Origin: a virus
Lineage: Duplodnaviria; Heunggongvirae; Uroviricota; Caudoviricetes
IMG/VR virus record: IMGVR_UViG_2897341779_000002
DNA length: 42,611 nucleotides
Reading direction: 5' to 3' (one strand)
Shown: positions 31,884 to 42,611 of the stretch, in pieces
Position numbering within the stretch: position 1 is the first letter of the stretch
Layout of the letters: every line of letters begins with the position of its first letter
Made by a program: the position numbers and the translations under genes
Notes under the pieces: model-generated
Database searches by the model: none
What the model was told of the DNA's origin: nothing
Seen by the model: the letters and a program-made list of their open reading frames with translations, nothing else

Positions 31884-32333
31884 ATGCAAGTAACCGTGGA
31901 ATATAATCAGGATAGTTTTGACTATTTTTTCTCCCCGGTTTTTGTTGAGTTTCCTGATTTAAAACAAACACTTGTAGATGATTTTATCATCTACAAGTCT
32001 ACGGGAACGTTGCCCAGCTATTTTGGCAGAGACACCTCTTATCATCGACCTCCTGATATTGAAGATGCAGGCCTTATGCACCTTCATTTAGCAATTGGTG
32101 AAAATAAATTTGAGCCAATAAAAAATGGCACAGATATCAGCACACCGCAAAAGTTGCAGTGGCATAAAACATCCAATACCGCTCTCGTTTATGCACAAAA
32201 TCTTTTTGATGAGAACAGGTATTCATTGATTGCTCTTTTTCATCCTGTAGCTCACATGTCTGCTAACAATCATAATAGAATGAGAGTGTTAGCAGGGTAT
32301 GCGAGAGACTTTAGAAACACTATGTTTGACTAA
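31884..32333 (+). CDS. YafO-family toxin-like protein
   Basis: 149-aa product shares motifs with E. coli YafO as I recall it: DFIIYKSTGTLPSYFGRD vs DFISYKRDGVLPDIFGRD; HLHLA vs HIHLA; ALVYAQNLFDE vs HLVYCQGAFDE; SLIALFHPVAH...NNHNRM vs LLIAILKPEPH...RDNNQM. Confidence 0.7.
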   Translation: MQVTVEYNQDSFDYFFSPVFVEFPDLKQTLVDDFIIYKSTGTLPSYFGRDTSYHRPPDIEDAGLMHLHLAIGENKFEPIKNGTDISTPQKLQWHKTSNTALVYAQNLFDENRYSLIALFHPVAHMSANNHNRMRVLAGYARDFRNTMFD

Positions 32334-32334
32334 A

Positions 32335-32357
32335 CCCACCGTCAGGTGGGTTTTTTA
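32335..32357 (+). terminator. terminator hairpin between the convergent YafO-like and ClpP-like genes
   Basis: CCCACC-GTCA-GGTGGG followed by TTTTTTAT. Confidence 0.55.
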
Positions 32358-32381
32358 TAAGGAGTAATCATGATTTACCCA

Positions 32382-32918
32382 TCAAACAACCCACCAGTTT
32401 GCCTGATTGGATGCCAGCCTTGCAGTTTTTATGGAATTAATTATGCCATGCTCAAGAGCCTTGTTAGCATCCAAAATGGTCGAGTCTGCTATCAGGGATG
32501 CCCACCTAATATGGGTTCCGATGTCGATATTGAACGTCTCAACGAAGCGATCAAGATCGTTATCGAGGCATTTCCCGTACTCTCTCAATCTGGCATGGTC
32601 GGCGGCTGGGGAGGCAAAGCACCATAATAGAGGATGTAACAGGAATCTTGATAATGGGTTTGCGAAACGTTCTGAGCCAGCCAGGAAAACGATATTAGCT
32701 ATGGATTCAACATTGCTTATGTTGTGAGTTCTAACGGTAACAGGGAGTGACTTAAGAAAGTTATACGCAGTAAAGCCAGCAGCAGTTTCCCCTCCCTGAC
32801 TTGATATATGGATATTTAATTCAGTTGCGCCTTGAGATAATGCGGTGAGACAGTGGTTCTGAAGTTGCCCAACAGTGGCAGTGTTAACAGGGCATAAGAA
32901 ATGAATTGTGTGCAGCAT
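32382..32918 (-). CDS. ClpP/S14-S49-fold serine peptidase-like protein (178 aa)
   Basis: ISSQGGETAAGFTAYNFL aligns with the ClpP INSPGG...AG segment and a His is conserved near LHPLLW; ATG overlaps the mnt stop (TAATG). Confidence 0.6.
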   Translation of the reverse strand: MLHTIHFLCPVNTATVGQLQNHCLTALSQGATELNIHISSQGGETAAGFTAYNFLKSLPVTVRTHNISNVESIANIVFLAGSERFANPLSRFLLHPLLWCFASPAADHARLREYGKCLDNDLDRFVETFNIDIGTHIRWASLIADSTILDANKALEHGIINSIKTARLASNQANWWVV

Positions 32919-34610: not shown

Positions 34611-34668
34611 ATGCCCAAAATTCACCGTGGCCATGCTGCGGCGATTCTTTGCATCTGGAGCAAATTAA

Positions 34669-34697
34669 ATGACAGACATTACAGCCAATGTGATTGT
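34669..34697 (+). other. orphaned 5' end of the tailspike gene (codons 1-10, MTDITANVIV)
   Basis: ATG with GGAG RBS encodes MTDITANVIV, the conserved P22-family tailspike N-terminus; the frame is broken by the IS at 34698 and resumes after 37278. Confidence 0.75.
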
Positions 34698-34890
34698 TGC
34701 GTATTTTCATGAAAGGAGATCACTCAATAACTTCCATCGAGATCGGGTAATAACATTTGAACAGATCGCTGAATAACATCGATGGAGATCACTTTTGACT
34801 CATTTTGTTATTCAGTGATCTCCATCAATGTTATTGGAACTTCACAGGTGTGTTGATCTGTATCTTTTGCCATTCCGGTAAAGGATACCT

Positions 34891-36432
34891 ATGCCAACAG
34901 TTCCAATTTCTATGAGAAAACTTAAAGAAATTCTTAGGCTTAAATACGGTGTTGGACTCAGCCATCGACAAATTGGTCGTAGTCTTGCAATCTCCCCTTC
35001 CGTTGTATCCAGATATGCTAATCGGGCGGCTCAACTTGGCATAAAGCAGTGGCCCTTACCTACAGGATGGGATGATACAAAACTAAAACATGCGTTCCTT
35101 CAGACCCAGGTTAAGATGAAGAAGCACTCTCTGCCTGACTGGGCTACAGTACACCGGGAACTGCGTAATAAATGCGTGACGCTGCAGCTACTCTGGGAAG
35201 AATACTGTGAGCGTAATCCAGGCGGTTTTTACAGCTATAACCATTACTGCCGGATGTACCGTGAATGGCTCAAAACCACTTCACCATCAATGCGTCAGGT
35301 ACATAAAGCTGGCGAAAAACTTTTCGTTGATTACTGTGGACCTACCGTTGGCGTTACCGACCCTGAGACCGGAGAAATAAGAACTGCTCAGGTCATCGTA
35401 GCTGTTCTCGGGGCATCAAGTTACACATGGGCAGAGGCCACCTGGTCTCAGCAGCTTGAAGACTGGGTGATGAGTCATGTTCGCTGCTTCCAGTGGTTGG
35501 GTGGCGTTCCTGAACTTGTTGTTCCGGACAATCTGAAAAGCGCCACATCCAGGGCATGTAAGTATGATCCTGACGTTAACCCTACCTACCAGCAGATGCT
35601 TGAGCATTATAATGTCGCAGTTTTGCCTGCGCGGCCACGTAAACCGAAAGATAAAGCCAAAGCTGAAGTTGGCGTTCAGGTTGTTGAACGCTGGATCATG
35701 GCCCGAATCAGGCATGAGATCTTCTACAGCCTTGCATCGCTTAATCAGCGCATTCGGGAGTTGCTGGAAAGACTGAATAACAAAATAATGCAGAAGTTGG
35801 GTTATTCACGTGCAGAACTCTTCATCCAGCTTGATAAACCCGCACTGAAGCCTCTTCCTGAAGCCAGTTACAGTTACACCCTGGTGAAGAAAGTCAGAGT
35901 TCATGCCGATTACCACGTGGAAATCGACAAACATTACTACTCGGTTCCATGTTCGCTGTTAGGCCAGCAACTGGAAGCATGGATCTCCGGAGAACTGGTA
36001 AGACTCTTCAATCAGGGGCAGGAGGTTGCTGTGCACCCGCGCAAGCGTACTTATGGCTACAGTACCCGCAACGAGCACATGCCTGAAGCTCATCGACAGC
36101 ATGCCACCTGGACGCCAGAGCGTCTTCTGGAATGGGCGGGGCACATAGGCAGTGAAACTCATAGTTATGTGCTTCATATACTGAACTCTCGTCCACATCC
36201 GGAACAAAGCTATCGCTTCTGCCTTGGACTCCTGAACCTTCATAAAAAATACAGTAAAGCCAGACTTAATGCAGCATGTGCAAGAGCTCTGAAAACAAAG
36301 GTATGGCGTCTGTCAGGTATTAAATCGATCCTGGAAAAAGGTCTGGATAAACAACCTGTTCAGGATCCAAAACCAGATCTGTTATCCACGATGGAACACG
36401 AAAACGTACGCGGCAGTGAGTATTACCACTGA
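34891..36432 (+). CDS. istA: IS21-family transposase IstA
   Basis: 513-aa ORF with N-terminal HTH-like segment and DDE-type integrase core, immediately followed by istB. Confidence 0.85.
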   Translation: MPTVPISMRKLKEILRLKYGVGLSHRQIGRSLAISPSVVSRYANRAAQLGIKQWPLPTGWDDTKLKHAFLQTQVKMKKHSLPDWATVHRELRNKCVTLQLLWEEYCERNPGGFYSYNHYCRMYREWLKTTSPSMRQVHKAGEKLFVDYCGPTVGVTDPETGEIRTAQVIVAVLGASSYTWAEATWSQQLEDWVMSHVRCFQWLGGVPELVVPDNLKSATSRACKYDPDVNPTYQQMLEHYNVAVLPARPRKPKDKAKAEVGVQVVERWIMARIRHEIFYSLASLNQRIRELLERLNNKIMQKLGYSRAELFIQLDKPALKPLPEASYSYTLVKKVRVHADYHVEIDKHYYSVPCSLLGQQLEAWISGELVRLFNQGQEVAVHPRKRTYGYSTRNEHMPEAHRQHATWTPERLLEWAGHIGSETHSYVLHILNSRPHPEQSYRFCLGLLNLHKKYSKARLNAACARALKTKVWRLSGIKSILEKGLDKQPVQDPKPDLLSTMEHENVRGSEYYH

Positions 36433-36443
36433 TACGGGATCCA

Positions 36444-37193
36444 ATGATGAATCATCTTTACGAACAACTGACCGCACTTAAACTCACCGGCTTCCGTGAT
36501 GCGCTTAAAAAGCAACTTGCTCAGCCGGGCACATACCAGGAGCTGGGCTTCGAAGAACGCCTGTCATTACTGACAGCAGAAGAACTAACCTGCCGTGAAA
36601 ACAGGAAGGCAGAGCGTCTGATCAAACATGCACGGTTCAGACTTAATGCTGAGTTATCAAAGCTGGATTATCGTAACAATAGAGGGCTGGACAGGGCCCT
36701 CATCCGTTCACTCAGTCAGGGAAACTGGTTAACCCTGAAACAAAATATTTTACTGACCGGGGCCACCGGCAGCGGTAAAACGTTCCTGGCATGTGCACTT
36801 GGTCATAATGCCTGCCGACAGGGATACAAGGTCTACTATTATCGCCTTAAAGCGCTGATGGAACAGTGCTATCAGGGGCATGCTGATGGAAGATACAGCA
36901 AACTTTTGACCAGGCTGAATAATAGCGATCTGCTGCTTCTGGATGACTGGGGGCTGGAACCTCTCTCATCAGAACAGCGTAGCGACCTGCTGGAAATAGT
37001 GGATCTGATGTACCAACGAGGCTCAATCATCGTAGTGAGCCAGTTGCCGGTGGAAAACTGGTACAAAATGATCGGAGACTCCACACATGCGGATGCCATC
37101 CTAGATCGACTGGTTCATGGCAGTATCAAGATCGAACTTAAAGGAGAATCAATGCGGAAAATACAATCACCGTTGACCGAAGGAGATCAGTGA
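36444..37193 (+). CDS. istB: IS21-family helper ATPase IstB
   Basis: 249-aa ORF with Walker A LTGATGSGKTFLACAL and Walker B LLLLDDWG. Confidence 0.9.
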   Translation: MMNHLYEQLTALKLTGFRDALKKQLAQPGTYQELGFEERLSLLTAEELTCRENRKAERLIKHARFRLNAELSKLDYRNNRGLDRALIRSLSQGNWLTLKQNILLTGATGSGKTFLACALGHNACRQGYKVYYYRLKALMEQCYQGHADGRYSKLLTRLNNSDLLLLDDWGLEPLSSEQRSDLLEIVDLMYQRGSIIVVSQLPVENWYKMIGDSTHADAILDRLVHGSIKIELKGESMRKIQSPLTEGDQ

Positions 37194-37287
37194 AGGTAAT
37201 TTAAAAACGGTTCTGTGAAAGTGACACGAACCGATCTCCATCGATGTTACTCACCGATCTCCTTCACGGTAATACGCAATTGTATCG

Positions 37288-40200
37288 ATGCCTTCGCAAC
37301 TCTTCACTATGGCGCGTTCTTTTAAAGCCGTAGCCAATGGCAAAATTTATATCGGTAAAATTGACACTGACCCGGTAAATCCTGAAAACCGGATTCAGGT
37401 TTATGTAGAGAACGAAGACGGCTCTCACGTTCCTGTTTCGCAACCAATCATCATTAACGCTGCTGGTTACCCTGTATATAACGGACGGATTGCCAAGTTC
37501 GTAACTGTGCAAGGCCATTCTATGGCTGTGTACGATGCGTATGGCGTACAGCAGTTCTATTTCCAGAATGTGCTGAAGTATGATCCTGATCAACTACGGC
37601 AGCAATTAGAAGACCCAGATGGAGCGAATAAATACCCAAAACTTCAGATAGCAAGATGGAGAGACAGTTATGATGTAAGAGGTTGGGGGGCTATTGGTGA
37701 TGGTGTTCATGATGATACATCAGCTCTATCAGAATTACTTTCTGTTGCAACAGGTGGTGAAAAGATAGATGGGCGAGGGCTTACTTTTAAAGTATCAACT
37801 CTTCCAGATGTCAGTCGATTTAAAAATGCTCGTTTTTTATTTGAGAGAATACCGGGTCAGCCTCTTTTTTATGTTTCTGAAGATTTTATCCAGGGAGAGT
37901 TATTTAAAATTACAGATACACCGTGGTACAACGCCTGGACGCAGGATAAAACGTTTGTATATGACAATGTCATCTATGCGCCTTTTATGGCTGGAGACCG
38001 CCATGGTGTAAATAACCTCCATGTTGCATGGGTTCGCTCAGGAGATGACGGGAAGACCTGGACAACGCCGGAATGGCTTACAGATTTACATGAAAACTAT
38101 CCCACAGTTAACTATCACTGCATGAGTATGGGGGTTGTCAGAAATCGCCTTTTTGCTGTAATTGAGACGCGGACCGTGAGCGGAAATAAACTGCAGGTTG
38201 CAGAGTTGTGGGATCGCCCAATGAGTCGCAGCCTTCGCGTTTATGGTGGTATAACGAAAGCAGCAAATCAGCAAGTCGCTTATATTCGCATTACTGATCA
38301 CGGATTATTTGCTGGTGATTTTGTCAACTTCTCAAACTCTGGTGTTACAGGTGTTACCGGGAATATGACGGTGACTACTGTTATTGATAAAAATACTTTT
38401 ACAGTTACGACGCAAAATACCCAGGATGTGGATCAGAATAACGAGGGTAGATACTGGAGTTTTGGTACATCATTTCACTCGTCACCATGGAGAAAAACCA
38501 GTCTTGGAACTATTCCTTCTTTTGTTGACGGAAGCACTCCTGTTACTGAGATTCACAGTTTTGCGACGATTAGCGATAACAGTTTTGCTGTTGGCTACCA
38601 TAATGGTGATATTGGTCCACGCGAGCTTGGGATACTCTATTTCTCTGATGCTTTCGGTTCTCCTGGTAGCTTTGTTCGCAGACGCATACCTGCAGAATAT
38701 GAGGCGAATGCATCTGAGCCATGTGTAAAATATTATGATGGCATTCTGTATCTGACGACCAGGGGGACATTAAGTACTCAACCCGGTAGTTCATTGCACA
38801 GAAGCTCTGATTTAGGTACATCATGGAATTCTCTTCGCTTCCCAAATAATGTTCATCACTCAAACCTTCCTTTTGCCAAAGTTGGCGATGAGCTGATTAT
38901 TTTTGGCAGTGAGCGCGCATTTGGTGAGTGGGAAGGAGGAGAACCTGATAACCGTTATGCAGGAAACTATCCAAGAACATTTATGACCAGAGTTAACGTC
39001 AATGAGTGGAGTCTGGATAATGTAGAGTGGGTTAATGTTACTGATCAGATTTATCAGGGCGGAATAGTTAACTCTGCGGTTGGTGTTGGTTCAGTTTGTA
39101 TCAAAGACAACTGGCTGTACTACATTTTCGGTGGGGAAGACTTTCTAAACCCATGGAGCATAGGGGATAACAACAGAAAATATCCTTATGTTCACGATGG
39201 TCACCCGGCTGATTTGTATTGTTTCAGGGTGAAAATTAAACAGGAAGAATTTGTTTCAAGGGATTTTGTCTACGGAGCCACTCCTAACAGAACGCTTCCT
39301 ACTTTTATGTCGACGTCAGGCGTGAGGACGGTTCCTGTACCCGTTGATTTCACAGATGATGTTGCCGTCCAGTCACTGACTGTCCATGCAGGTACATCAG
39401 GACAAGTTCGCGCGGAAGTCAAACTTGAGGGTAATTACGCCATTATTGCGAAGAAAGTACCGTCTGATGATGTTACCGCTCAGAGATTAATCGTTAGCGG
39501 CGGTGAAACAACGTCTTCAGCAGATGGTGCAATGATAACGTTGCATGGTTCCAGAAGCAGTACTCCACGTCGCGCGGTATATAACGCACTCGAACATCTT
39601 TTTGAGAACGGAGATGTTAAACCTTATCTTGATAATGTAAATGCTCTTGGTGGTCCGGGAAACAGGTTCTCGATAGTTTATCTTGGCTCCAATCCTGTGG
39701 TTACCAGTGACGGAACATTAAAGACAGAGCCGGTCTCTCCTGACGAAACATTGCTGGATGCCTGGGGTGACGTCAGGTATATCGCTTATAAATGGCTGAA
39801 CGCTGTCGCTATAAAGGGGGAAGAAGGGGCGAGGATACATCATGGTGTAATCGCGCAGCAACTTCGTGATGTTCTTATTTCTCACGGACTCATGGAAGAA
39901 GAAAGCACAACATGCCGCTATGCCTTTCTTTGCTATGACGATTATCCCGCAGTATATGATGACGTCATTACTGGCCAAAGGGAAATGCCGCTGACTGATA
40001 ATGACGGGAGCATCATTGTTGATGAGGATGATAATCCAGTGATGGTAATGGAAGACATCATTGAGCGCGTTGAAATAACGCCAGCAGGATCTAGATGGGG
40101 GGTCAGACCTGATCTCTTATTCTATATCGAGGCAGCATGGCAGCGCAGAGAAATAGAAAGAATAAAAGCTAGGTTAGACTTAATAGAAGGGAAGCACTAA
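37288..40200 (+). CDS. tailspike body: P22-type head-binding domain fused to an endosialidase-like domain and C-terminal intramolecular chaperone domain; separated from its first 10 codons by the IS
   Basis: N-terminal ...[39 protein letters not shown]...VLKYDPDQ matches the P22 tailspike head-binding domain; Asp-box-like SGDDGKTW and SSDLGTSW; C-terminal S-DGTLK (Ser/Lys at i, i+5) and [10 protein letters not shown] recall the endosialidase chaperone domain. Confidence 0.8.
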
Positions 40201-40353: not shown

Positions 40354-41214
40354 ATGTTAAGACTCAAGACTCAAGACTCAAGACTCAAGACTCAAGACTC
40401 AAGACTCAAGACTCAAGACTCAAGACTCAAGACTCAAGACTCAAGACTCAAGACTCAAGACTCAAGACTCAAGACTCAAGACTCAAGACTCAAGACTCAA
40501 GACTCAAGACTCAAGACTCAAGACTCAAGACTCAAGACTCAAGACTCAAGACTCAAGACTCAAGACTCGTTTTCCGTTGATGATAATGGGTCAGGTAATG
40601 TTTTTGTATGTGGAGATCTTGTAAATAGCAAAGAGAATAAAGTTCAGTTCAATGGAAACAATAACAAACTTATTATAGAAGATGATGTTGAGTGTCGATG
40701 GCTTACCGTAATATTTAGGGGTGATAATAATTACGTAAGAATACATAAAAACAGTAAGATTAAAGGTGATATTGTCGCAACAAAAGGTTCAAAAGTTATT
40801 ATCGGTAGAAGAACGACAATAGGTGCAGGTTTTGAAGTCGTCACTGATAAGTGCAATGTTACAATTGGCCATGACTGCATGATAGCAAGAGATGTTATTT
40901 TGCGTGCATCAGATGGGCATCCTATATTTGATATTCATAGCAAAAAAAGGATTAATTGGGCAAAAGATATCATTATATCTAGTTACGTATGGGTAGGGAG
41001 AAATGTCTCTATAATGAAAGGAGTATCTGTTGGAAGCGGATCTGTCATTGGGTATGGGAGTATTGTAACTAAAGATGTGCCATCTATGTGTGCAGCAGCC
41101 GGTAATCCAGCAAAAATAATAAAAAGAAATATAATATGGGCAAGAACGGATAAAGCGGAGCTAATTAGTGATGACAAGAGATGCTCCAGCTATCATGCGA
41201 AGCTCACGCAATAA
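40354..41214 (+). CDS. neuO: phase-variable polysialic acid O-acetyltransferase NeuO-like (hexapeptide-repeat acyltransferase)
   Basis: 286-aa ORF: N-terminal RLKTQDS x10 encoded by AAGACTC heptads, then left-handed beta-helix hexapeptide repeats (IGAGFEV, IGHDCMI, VGRNVSI, VGSGSVI, IGYGSIV); location downstream of the tailspike as described for CUS-3. Confidence 0.85.
   Translation: MLRLKTQDSRLKTQDSRLKTQDSRLKTQDSRLKTQDSRLKTQDSRLKTQDSRLKTQDSRLKTQDSRLKTQDSFSVDDNGSGNVFVCGDLVNSKENKVQFNGNNNKLIIEDDVECRWLTVIFRGDNNYVRIHKNSKIKGDIVATKGSKVIIGRRTTIGAGFEVVTDKCNVTIGHDCMIARDVILRASDGHPIFDIHSKKRINWAKDIIISSYVWVGRNVSIMKGVSVGSGSVIGYGSIVTKDVPSMCAAAGNPAKIIKRNIIWARTDKAELISDDKRCSSYHAKLTQ
40359..40568 (+). repeat. 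30 tandem copies of the heptanucleotide AAGACTC inside the neuO 5' coding region
   Basis: Counted directly: 210 bp of perfect AAGACTC repeats = 30 units, a multiple of 3, so the reading frame is maintained. Confidence 0.9.
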
Positions 41215-41453: not shown

Positions 41454-42611
41454 TCACTCTACCTTCTCATCAAGCCAATCCGCCCACCACTGCATCATTT
41501 CTCTGCGCTTATCGAGATACTGAGCATGGTTGTAAATACCGCGCACAGATCCGCCGTTGGCATGTGCCAGTTGCACTTCAATAGCGTCAGCAGGCCATTC
41601 GTGCTCGTTCATAATCGTGCTGAATTCATGCCTGAATCCGTGACCGCTTTCTAGACCCTCATAGCCGATTTGTTTGATCACAAGTAGAACCGCGTTCTCG
41701 CAGATTGGCTTCTTCTTATCGTTGCGCCCGGCAAAAACAAACTCTGATACTGGTTTGGTGATGGAGCTTAGCGTAGTGAGAAGTTCAACCACCTGGTCTG
41801 ACATCGGGACCACATGAATTTTGCGTCCCTTCATCACACTGGCGTCGATGGTGATAATCCTGTTTTCAAAATCGACGTTCTTCCATAGCATGGAACGAAG
41901 CTCTTTCGTTCTTAGGGCTGTGTAGCGTAAAACTTTGGTCGCAATGAGCGATACGATACTTCCTGAAAATGTTGCCAGTGCTTTGTTGAATGCAGGGATC
42001 TGGTCTGCAGGAAGAAACGGGAAGTTCTTCTTGCGGTATCCCTTCATGGCGTCAGCAAGGTCAGGTGCCGGGTTATATTTAGCCCTACCAGTGACAATAG
42101 CGTAACGGAAAACCTCGCCGCATCTTCTGCGGGCTTTGTTGGCTCGCTCCATTGCACCGCGATCTTCAAATCTGCGGATTACTTCCAGCAGTTGCATCGG
42201 CTCAATATCCTGAATTTCAAGGCCGCCGATGATAGGTAAAATGTCGTCATCAAACATTTTTGCAAGTTCAGTTGCATAGCCTACTGACCAGACTTGCTTC
42301 TTGTGCTCGTACCATTCCTTGTAAATCGCACTAAAGGAATTGTTGTTAGACGAAGCCTTTTTCGCTTTTACCGGATCGATGCCAACCGAGATGTCTTTCC
42401 TCGCGGTCCATGCTTTATCTCTTGCCTCCTGCAAAGTCATAAGTGGATATTTTCCGACGGTCAGGATTTTCTCCTTACCGTCAATCTTGTAGCGAAGCTG
42501 CCATACCTTTTTCCCTGATACAGGGACATAAAGGTACAGGCCATTACCATCGAGTAGGCGGTATGGTTTTTCTTTCGGCTTTGCTGCTTCAATCTGCTTA
42601 ACGGTGAGCAT
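41454..42611 (-). CDS. int: tyrosine integrase (P4/P22-type)
   Basis: 385-aa ORF whose N-terminus MLTVKQIEAAKPKEKPYRLLDGNGLYLYV aligns with the P4-family integrase arm-binding domain and whose C-terminus carries the R...HxxR...Y catalytic region; start codon is at the last base of the window. Confidence 0.9.
   Translation of the reverse strand: MLTVKQIEAAKPKEKPYRLLDGNGLYLYVPVSGKKVWQLRYKIDGKEKILTVGKYPLMTLQEARDKAWTARKDISVGIDPVKAKKASSNNNSFSAIYKEWYEHKKQVWSVGYATELAKMFDDDILPIIGGLEIQDIEPMQLLEVIRRFEDRGAMERANKARRRCGEVFRYAIVTGRAKYNPAPDLADAMKGYRKKNFPFLPADQIPAFNKALATFSGSIVSLIATKVLRYTALRTKELRSMLWKNVDFENRIITIDASVMKGRKIHVVPMSDQVVELLTTLSSITKPVSEFVFAGRNDKKKPICENAVLLVIKQIGYEGLESGHGFRHEFSTIMNEHEWPADAIEVQLAHANGGSVRGIYNHAQYLDKRREMMQWWADWLDEKVE

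Follow-up and report, generated by a model that had tools for sequence, protein, structure and literature searches.

The open reading frame (ORF) at 37288..40200 of the window, i.e., the whole 42,611-nucleotide stretch of viral DNA analyzed in this study, raises two related questions: what type of tailspike is encoded there and whether the gene is still complete. We estimate a probability of roughly 0.9 that the ORF is siaK1 (endoNK1), the gene for the receptor-destroying tailspike of a CUS-3-type, P22-like prophage of Escherichia coli K1 and that this gene is split in codon 10 by ISEc12. The ORF product shares 964 of its 970 amino acid residues with residues 12–981 of CUS-3 SiaK1, and all six substitutions fall in the head-binding region and the linker. 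The nucleotide identity to CUS-3 siaK1 was 99.0% across the entire ORF. In addition, the initial 25 kb of the window matched CUS-3 at 99.3% identity across 90% of its length. The GenBank entry of CUS-3 siaK1 is annotated with endo-alpha-sialidase activity from direct assay (PMID 16689790). All six Pfam domains expected of such a protein were found in the 970-aa ORF in the expected order. The domains and the residues discussed below are as follows.

37288..40200, + strand: tailspike ORF, 5'-truncated; 970 aa, corresponding to native SiaK1 residues 12-981
37288..37593, + strand: P22-type head-binding (particle-attachment) domain; residues 1-102 (Pfam PF09008, 5.8e-58)
37690..37890, + strand: endosialidase N-terminal extension (End_N_terminal); residues 135-201 (PF12218, 2.9e-37)
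37891..39240, + strand: six-bladed beta-propeller catalytic domain (End_beta_propel); residues 202-651 (PF12217, 1.1e-233, full profile 1-367)
38038-38061, + strand: Asp-box SGDDGKTW; residues 251-258, fitting S-x-D-x-G-x-x-W
38224-38472, + strand: inserted beta-barrel (End_beta_barrel); residues 313-395 (PF12195, 1.2e-46)
38803-38826, + strand: Asp-box SSDLGTSW; residues 506-513, fitting S-x-D-x-G-x-x-W
39241..39705, + strand: stalk, triple-beta-helix domain (End_tail_spike); residues 652-806, including R793 (PF12219, 6.6e-78)
39706..40197, + strand: C-terminal intramolecular chaperone/autocleavage domain (Peptidase_S74, 'chaperone of endosialidase'); residues 807-970, 164 aa (PF13884)
39706-39708, + strand: predicted nucleophile Ser807, codon AGT, at the start of PF13884; equivalent of endoNF Ser911
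39721-39723, + strand: Lys812, i+5 from Ser807, in the context NPVVT/SDGTLKTEP; equivalent of endoNF Lys916

The catalytic part closely resembled that of the endosialidase endoNF. The crystal structures of endoNF (1v0e/3gvl) matched ORF residues 134-806 with E = 0 and 65.8% identity; the 1v0e chain begins at residue 245. Both Asp-boxes aligned to those of endoNF, SGDDGQTW and SRDIGQTW. Given that the E values were 1e-233 for End_beta_propel and 0 for 1v0e/3gvl, the match of domains and Asp-boxes is not a matter of chance. Moreover, the residue map showed that H239, R445, E477, R492, and R543 of the ORF are conserved and correspond to endoNF H350, R549, E581, R596, and R647, respectively, for which catalytic or substrate-binding roles have been described (PMC12632334). 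Together, these comparisons support the assignment of the encoded module as a predicted GH58-type endosialidase with specificity for K1 polysialic acid.

Similar to the catalytic part, the C-terminal domain followed endoNF. The PF13884 homology begins exactly at residue 807, the predicted cleavage serine, and the endoNF chaperone-domain structure 3gw6 matched ORF residues 687-968 with an E value of about 1e-94. The identity between the chaperone domain of the ORF and the C-terminal domain of endoNF was 54.6% with a global aligner. In endoNF, cleavage depends on the published dyad Ser911/Lys916, and the helper Arg897 takes part in the reaction; the residue map placed stalk R793 of the ORF at endoNF R897. 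A GVIAQ motif was also found at ORF residue 853. This motif is the conserved trimerization motif of intramolecular chaperone domains, in which cleavage occurs at the serine after the trimer has folded.

The sequence-only reading of this ORF held up, with one correction that concerns its start codon. Its P22 head-binding domain, running through VLKYDPDQ, has the same end as the Pfam Head_binding match. The proposed endosialidase-like module with sialidase-type Asp-boxes was borne out by the full endosialidase Pfam set, the two motif-fitting boxes and the alignment to endoNF-type endosialidases that it had suggested as a check. Its K1-phage-type chaperone domain, with a Ser codon at 39706..39708 and a Ser/Lys dyad spaced i, i+5, was exact in position, and the predicted release of roughly the last 160 residues agrees with the 164 residues beyond the predicted scissile bond. 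Finally, the K1 polysialic acid specificity it had predicted is consistent with the assay of the 99%-identical CUS-3 siaK1 as an endo-alpha-sialidase and with the serovar of the lineage, O1:K1:H7.

By analogy with endoNF and with the 99%-identical CUS-3 protein, for which homology and residue conservation were seen directly, we infer how the encoded protein would work. The P22-type head-binding domain would dock the tailspike trimer on the phage tail, and the GH58-type endosialidase would bind and cleave the K1 capsule polymer alpha-2,8-polysialic acid. Trimerization and stalk folding would be driven by the chaperone domain, the last 164 residues, which would then release itself at the Thr806-Ser807 bond by a cleavage that depends on Ser807/Lys812. 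Both the processing and the activity are predicted for the polypeptide that the ORF encodes; the locus in its present state need not show either.

The region upstream of the ORF bears on whether the gene is complete. It contains the following features.

34657..34697, + strand: orphaned native tailspike 5' end, recognized by aligning it with the intact start of CUS-3 siaK1
34693..34697, no strand: left copy of the target-site duplication ATTGT, read from the sequence
34698..37278, + strand: ISEc12 (IS21 family), 2,581 bp; the exact span matches IS copies in other phage records at 100%
34891..36432, + strand: istA, 513 aa; Pfam rve and Mu-transposase C domain
36444..37193, + strand: istB, 249 aa; IstB_IS21, 2.2e-67
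37279..37283, no strand: right copy of ATTGT, read from the sequence

The element, which RefSeq names 'IS21-like element ISEc12 family', has the hallmarks of the IS21 family, including tandem istA (DDE transposase) and istB (AAA+ helper) genes, inverted repeats, and a short target duplication. Its terminal inverted repeats are imperfect (TGCGTATTTTCATGAA / TTCACGGTAATACGCA). In CUS-3, the empty insertion site reads GTGATCGTATCG, and in related intact prophages the stretch matching 34669-34697 runs directly into that from 37284 onward. The orphaned 5' end retains a Shine-Dalgarno sequence, GGAG, at 34657-34660, the true ATG at 34669, codons 1-9 and two bases of codon 10 (MTDITANVI-V). Translation from this ATG reads into the IS and gives a stub of 35 codons. 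An in-frame stop codon lies inside the IS at 37270-37272, and the next ATG is the one at 37288; the intact CUS-3 gene begins 33 nt before the position matching 37288. Because ISEc12, flanked by the ATTGT duplication, sits inside codon 10, 37288 is not the native start. Thus, the + strand reading frame given by the sequence-only reading is real, but its ATG encodes what is Met12 in the native protein of 981 aa. Likewise, the Head_binding match covers profile positions 12-113 only, so the domain lacks the first 11 profile positions; the IS stands between the first 11 native residues and the ORF, leaving the N-terminal head-binding domain incomplete. An assembly artefact was also considered for the IS junction and was rejected, as a closed genome, the type-strain draft and two further drafts all contain it.

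Several other explanations need to be weighed against a K1-specific tailspike gene disrupted by ISEc12. Many tail fibres of unrelated specificities carry a Peptidase_S74 domain, and the module could accordingly be a sialidase-like fold with a substrate other than polysialic acid, followed by nothing more than a general tail-fibre chaperone. However, the 66% identity to endoNF extends over the whole catalytic part with all of the listed catalytic residues conserved, the assayed CUS-3 enzyme is 99% identical, and the host lineage is K1, all of which render another substrate hardly credible. The RefSeq annotation implies that the ORF from 37288 is an intact, normally working tailspike gene, for which the upstream IS would be merely intergenic: PGAP calls a plain 'phage tailspike protein' CDS (RefSeq WP_032190887.1), and about 10 assemblies have a call for exactly this 970-aa product. 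Against this, the CUS-3 start survives 2.6 kb upstream: its ATG is at 34669, and the first 9 2/3 codons run up to the left end of the IS, with the 5-bp duplication on both sides of the element. Moreover, the match to the head-binding profile starts only at its position 12, 37288 is not preceded by a Shine-Dalgarno sequence, and the other assemblies with the 970-aa product either share the IS junction (L004, L006, and L007) or have a frameshift at this position (L005). An intact gene is highly improbable on this evidence. In the RefSeq entry, a remnant clipped by an IS thus appears as a complete tailspike, which could mislead host-range prediction or depolymerase mining.

A more serious alternative is that the clipped gene is expressed at a low level, from transcripts that run on from istB or the late operon, with a start at Met12 or Met19, and that it yields a shortened but active, self-processing endosialidase that may or may not attach to the virion. 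The insertion left the whole catalytic and chaperone region unchanged and in frame. The stop codon of istB lies 95 nt upstream of 37288 on the same strand, no terminator-like site was found between istB and 37288, and Shine-Dalgarno-independent or weak initiation at 37288 could give some protein. Constructs of endoNF without the N-terminal capsid-binding part reportedly fold and are active. However, the stretch from the IS end to 37288 showed no Shine-Dalgarno sequence, and a consensus scan of the + strand at 36842-38576 predicted no outward promoter in the right end of the IS, which is a weak negative. In addition, the 11 residues that are lost form part of the particle-binding domain. Low-level expression is therefore possible but rather unlikely. 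Since the IS removed the first ten codons and the ribosome-binding site from the ORF, the copy is probably disabled. The native promoter-proximal context, with its Shine-Dalgarno sequence and ATG 34669, would yield only the 35-codon stub, and the 970-aa remnant from Met12, located behind 2.6 kb of IS and lacking a Shine-Dalgarno sequence, would give little or no tailspike. Judged from these sequence features, tailspike production would be abolished or strongly reduced, and the prophage would therefore be defective for infectious particles.

The surroundings of the gene also fit a CUS-3 prophage. Two further genes were found downstream of the tailspike ORF.

40354..41214, + strand: neuO, the phase-variable polysialic acid O-acetyltransferase gene of CUS-3; intact
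41454..42611, - strand: prophage integrase; a tRNA-Arg then follows in the matching genome

The neuO gene contains 30 copies of the heptanucleotide AAGACTC at 40359-40568, in frame, which corresponds to phase-ON by the published heptanucleotide repeat rule. As a lysogenic-conversion gene, neuO would stay functional despite the loss of the tailspike. The P22-like genome, siaK1, neuO with its AAGACTC tract, and the integrase adjoining tRNA-Arg are together those expected of a CUS-3 prophage. The junction between the IS and the tailspike gene is also present in the E. coli type strain DSM 30083T, whose serovar is O1:K1:H7. The type-strain lineage (U5/41, O1:K1:H7) appears to carry a CUS-3 prophage that is probably unable to build complete virions but has a phase-variable neuO currently in frame, which is relevant when this strain is used to study the K1 capsule or phages.

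The CUS-3 module was found in 193 of 5,426 complete genomes. The uninterrupted P22-type 5' region occurred in 705 genomes, and only one complete genome had the IS junction, so that an intact 5' end is the usual state. The insertion of ISEc12 in codon 10 is a lesion of the type-strain lineage, shared by the three assemblies named above, and the fourth (GCA_018158575.1) had an off-by-one frameshift at the same site, which may be an excision footprint or an assembly artefact. IS3 insertions in the propeller region were found in at least three other complete genomes. These lesions raise the doubtful idea that the capsule-degrading tailspike of CUS-3 is recurrently inactivated in lysogens while neuO is kept. 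If true, this would reflect selection against leaky expression of an enzyme able to remove the K1 capsule of its own host, and the prophage would be domesticated because a phage depolymerase conflicts with a host virulence factor.

Among known systems, SiaK1/endoNK1 of CUS-3 (ABQ88383.1, CAJ29292.1; Stummeyer et al., 2006, PMID 16689790; King et al., 2007, PMID 17601779) is the same gene with the same neighbours, ant upstream and neuO and int downstream. Different from CUS-3, however, the gene is split here in codon 10 by ISEc12, and its first 11 residues and native translation signals are lost. The chimera of a P22-type head-binding domain and an endosialidase was already known from work published in 2005-2007, and its identification here is a rediscovery. 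The CUS-3 chimeric tailspike, its K1 specificity and its self-cleaving chaperone domain are textbook cases of modular tailspike evolution and have little value as a discovery.

Similar to the ORF product, endoNF of the lytic coliphage K1F has a beta-propeller with a beta-barrel, a stalk, and a C-terminal chaperone domain. The N-terminal adaptor of K1F, however, is T7-fibre-like, whereas that of the ORF is of the P22 head-binding type. The ORF also carries a 7-residue insertion, FVDGSTP, at residues 412-418, and Met749 at the place of endoNF Gln853, a stalk residue of a polysialic acid-binding site in endoNF. Met749 is also found in CUS-3 SiaK1, which is reported to be active.

The N-domains of P22 and Sf6 tailspikes in the PDB matched the N-terminus of the ORF. 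The tailspikes of the P22-like Lederbergvirus members P22 (gp9), Sf6, and HK620 possess a homologous head-binding domain (PDB 2xc1, 1lkt, and 7sg7; E values of 1e-41 to 1e-60) and are encoded at the same gene position, after ant. Their receptor-binding part, however, is an endorhamnosidase-type beta-helix instead of an endosialidase, and P22 gp9 lacks a self-cleaving chaperone domain. The i, i+5 Ser-Lys dyad and the GVIAQ motif are shared with other Peptidase S74/intramolecular chaperone autocleavage (ICA) domains, such as those of GA-1 gp12, the T5 L-shaped fibre, K5 lyase, and eukaryotic MYRF. Different from these, the domain of the present ORF is the endosialidase-type version, with a long 'tentacle' region and a full-length alignment to 3gw6.

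The native siaK1 gene of CUS-3 contains 981 codons and starts 33 nt 5' of the position equivalent to 37288, and homology to CUS-3 on the 5' side of the tailspike ORF of the window ended at 37279 and restarted 2.6 kb further left. The sequence-only reading had placed a tailspike gene at 37288..40200. A 970-codon ORF is present there on the + strand and its coding content stands, but 37288 is not the native start.

Features at the 5' end of the tailspike gene
34657-34660, native Shine-Dalgarno sequence GGAG
34669, native ATG, with codons MTDITANVI-V followed by foreign DNA from 34698
34693-34697 and 37279-37283, 5-bp direct duplication ATTGT on both sides of the IS element
34698..37278, IS element of 2,581 bp

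The exact span 34698..37278 was 100% matched by IS copies in unrelated phage records. The element ends in imperfect inverted repeats (TGCGTATTTTCATGAA / TTCACGGTAATACGCA), encodes IstA (rve and Mu-transposase C domains) and IstB (IstB_IS21, 2.2e-67) as identified with Pfam, and is listed in RefSeq as IS21-like, ISEc12 family. Because this IS, with its ATTGT duplication, divides the native start from the ORF, the tailspike gene is split inside codon 10. Translation from the native start now yields a 35-codon stub. The 970-codon ORF starts at native Met12, just past an in-frame TAA (37270-37272) within the IS, and the Pfam head-binding profile was matched only from position 12.

With its translation-initiation region and first 11 residues lost and a 2.6-kb IS in front, the gene probably yields little or no tailspike, and the prophage would probably fail to assemble infectious particles, which we infer with moderate confidence (about 0.7). 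RefSeq annotates an intact gene starting at 37288, a reading at odds with the split of the gene and the duplicated target site. Alternatively, a shortened but active enzyme may be expressed at low level, as istB, which has the same orientation, stops 95 nt 5' of the ORF and no terminator-like site separates the two. No Shine-Dalgarno-like sequence was found 5' of the ORF start, where the sequence is TTCACGGTAATACGCAATTGTATCG, and the stretch from the IS end to the ORF showed no promoter-like site. An enzyme with a substrate other than polysialic acid is very unlikely, given its 99% identity to the assayed CUS-3 enzyme. Judged likewise at the level of the locus, neuO is quite likely still usable in this prophage with a split tailspike gene.

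The protein itself was described correctly from the sequence, including its endosialidase-like module and C-terminal chaperone domain, a rediscovery of a published protein that is hence already known. A Pfam search of the ORF product identified all endosialidase domains in the expected order.

Features of the 970-aa product
Residues 1-102, P22-type head-binding domain up to VLKYDPDQ (PF09008, 5.8e-58)
Residues 135-201, End_N_terminal (2.9e-37)
Residues 202-651, End_beta_propel (1.1e-233, full-length profile match)
Residues 251-258, nt 38038-38061, + strand, sialidase Asp-box SGDDGKTW
Residues 313-395, inserted End_beta_barrel (1.2e-46)
Residues 506-513, nt 38803-38826, + strand, sialidase Asp-box SSDLGTSW
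Residues 652-806, End_tail_spike (6.6e-78)
From residue 807, Peptidase_S74, 'chaperone of endosialidase' (2.7e-10)

The head-binding domain and both Asp-boxes had been named beforehand, as had the Ser codon at 39706-39708 (Ser807) with Lys at i+5 (Lys812), which was also found. Structures of endoNF, the endosialidase of phage K1F (1v0e, 3gvl and others), matched residues 134-806 end to end (E = 0), and 3gw6, containing the endoNF stalk and uncleaved chaperone domain, matched residues 687-968 (about 1e-94). The identities to endoNF were 65.8% in the catalytic part and 54.6% in the chaperone domain. Numbering of endoNF was anchored on the termini of the crystallised chains and on R647A, a substitution seen in 3gvj. 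The trimerisation motif GVIAQ was found at residue 853. Met749 (nt 39532-39534) aligned to endoNF Gln853, and CUS-3 SiaK1 also has Met there. Gln853, with R837 and S848, belongs to the stalk polysialic-acid binding site of endoNF; the counterparts of R837 and S848, R733 and S744, were conserved. Residues H350, R549, E581, R596 and R647 of endoNF, which a deep mutational scanning study of the K1F tailspike describes as catalytic or substrate-binding and as mutation-intolerant (PMC12632334), correspond to H239, R445, E477, R492 and R543 and were all conserved. The autocleavage centre of endoNF consists of the Ser911/Lys916 dyad and stalk Arg897 (PMC8326128, PMC3742440), corresponding to Ser807, Lys812 and Arg793.

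If the protein were made, the folded stalk would position Arg793 and the Ser807/Lys812 dyad, and the Thr806-Ser807 bond would be cut after stalk folding. The domain predicted to be released counts 164 residues up to the stop codon, in line with the roughly 160 proposed earlier. The mature trimer would bind polysialic acid and cut it at the active site of the propeller (E477, R492 and R543, with H239 and R445), and the P22-type head-binding domain would seat it on the virion tail.

The endosialidase module was found in 193 of 5,426 complete E. coli genomes at identities of at least 95% (192 at at least 99%), and an uninterrupted P22-type tailspike 5' region in 705 genomes. The IS/tailspike junction was found in only one complete genome, that of strain JCM 20135 (NZ_AP043894.1). 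The exact 970-aa product is called in ~10 public assemblies. The draft of the type strain DSM 30083T (serovar O1:K1:H7) has the junction as well, and two more drafts share its right side and break off within the IS. This distribution therefore places the window in the type-strain lineage, with a K1 host. The two genome papers describing the type strain are silent on prophages, and the interruption is a small new annotation point, an instance of ordinary prophage decay.

The JCM 20135 chromosome is 4,903,600 bp, with CUS-3 prophage junctions identical to those of the O1:K1:H7 type strain; that of ATCC 11775, the type strain, is reported as 4,903,501 bp. The JCM 20135 metadata give 'feces from diphtheria convalescent', which is the provenance of K-12. 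This record may reflect a strain or metadata mix-up, the comparison covering the prophage locus.

Other lesions were observed in related loci. The locus in GCA_018158575.1 (L005, 2493-2535) lacks the IS and equals window 34669-34693 joined to 37279 onward, i.e., the window minus 34694..37278, the IS plus four of the five duplicated bases. Owing to one surplus base (GTGAATTGTATCG), the native ATG and the tailspike ORF are in different frames (+1 frameshift). The arrangement resembles a footprint left by off-by-one excision of the ISEc12 insertion present in the window; it may also be an assembly artefact. Moreover, an IS3-family element interrupted the propeller-coding part in 3 of 30 sampled genomes with CUS-3-type prophages, E. 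coli FY26 (NZ_CP101741.1; L003, 1056-5314) and two others. PGAP marks the IS3-split halves as pseudogenes and the ISEc12-clipped copy as an intact CDS, WP_032190887.1. That these lesions (ISEc12, the L005 frameshift and IS3 in three genomes) reflect recurrent inactivation of a capsule-degrading tailspike under selection in lysogens is unlikely.

The genes around the tailspike ORF were also compared.

Genes flanking the tailspike ORF
31884-32333, + strand, YafO-family toxin
32382-32918, - strand, ClpP-like protease subunit
Upstream of the ORF, ant
40354-41214, downstream, neuO (hexapeptide-repeat acyltransferase, AAGACTC tract)
Downstream, tyrosine integrase, then tRNA-Arg in the matching genome

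The tract of neuO contains 30 AAGACTC copies (40359-40568), a multiple of three; therefore neuO is in frame (phase ON), and its product of 286 aa contains the heptad RLKTQDS ten times. The JCM 20135 locus (L002, 8730-8911), 100% identical apart from this tract, has 26 copies, with a frameshift and a stop after ~80 codons, and PGAP calls only a 111-aa 'acyltransferase'; the DSM 30083T draft (L004, 7072-7176) has 15. Either phase variation within one lineage, caught in different assemblies, or collapse of repeats in the short-read draft accounts for this spread.

The 'tail fiber' gene of phage vB_EcoP_ZX5 (39.5 kb) and Phi05 phage fragments share only window 37776-40168 (ORF nt 489-2881), at 99.5% identity, and 'endosialidase' genes with different ends in IAI39-type genomes also match this stretch. 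The left edge lies within the endosialidase N-terminal extension (~residue 163) rather than where the head-binding domain ends. The shared stretch indicates that phage types recently swapped the receptor-binding module.

CUS-3 was 99.3% identical to the first 25 kb of the window over 90% of that length. In the immI/moron region upstream of ant (31884-32918), the gene content, taken from RefSeq for the identical JCM 20135 region, differs from that of the CUS-3 RS218 record, which contains hkcB, hypotheticals and mnt. The siaK1 gene of CUS-3 from E. coli RS218, annotated in GenBank as 'endosialidase tailspike protein' and credited there with directly assayed endo-alpha-sialidase activity (PMID 16689790), was 99.0% identical to the full-length ORF at the DNA level. 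Residues 12-981 of SiaK1 were identical to the ORF product at 964 of 970 positions, and the six differences all fall before residue 110. The CUS-3 tailspike is known from reviews as a chimera whose N-terminal domain is common to P22, Sf6 and HK620 and whose catalytic domain is common to K1F (PMC5380687).
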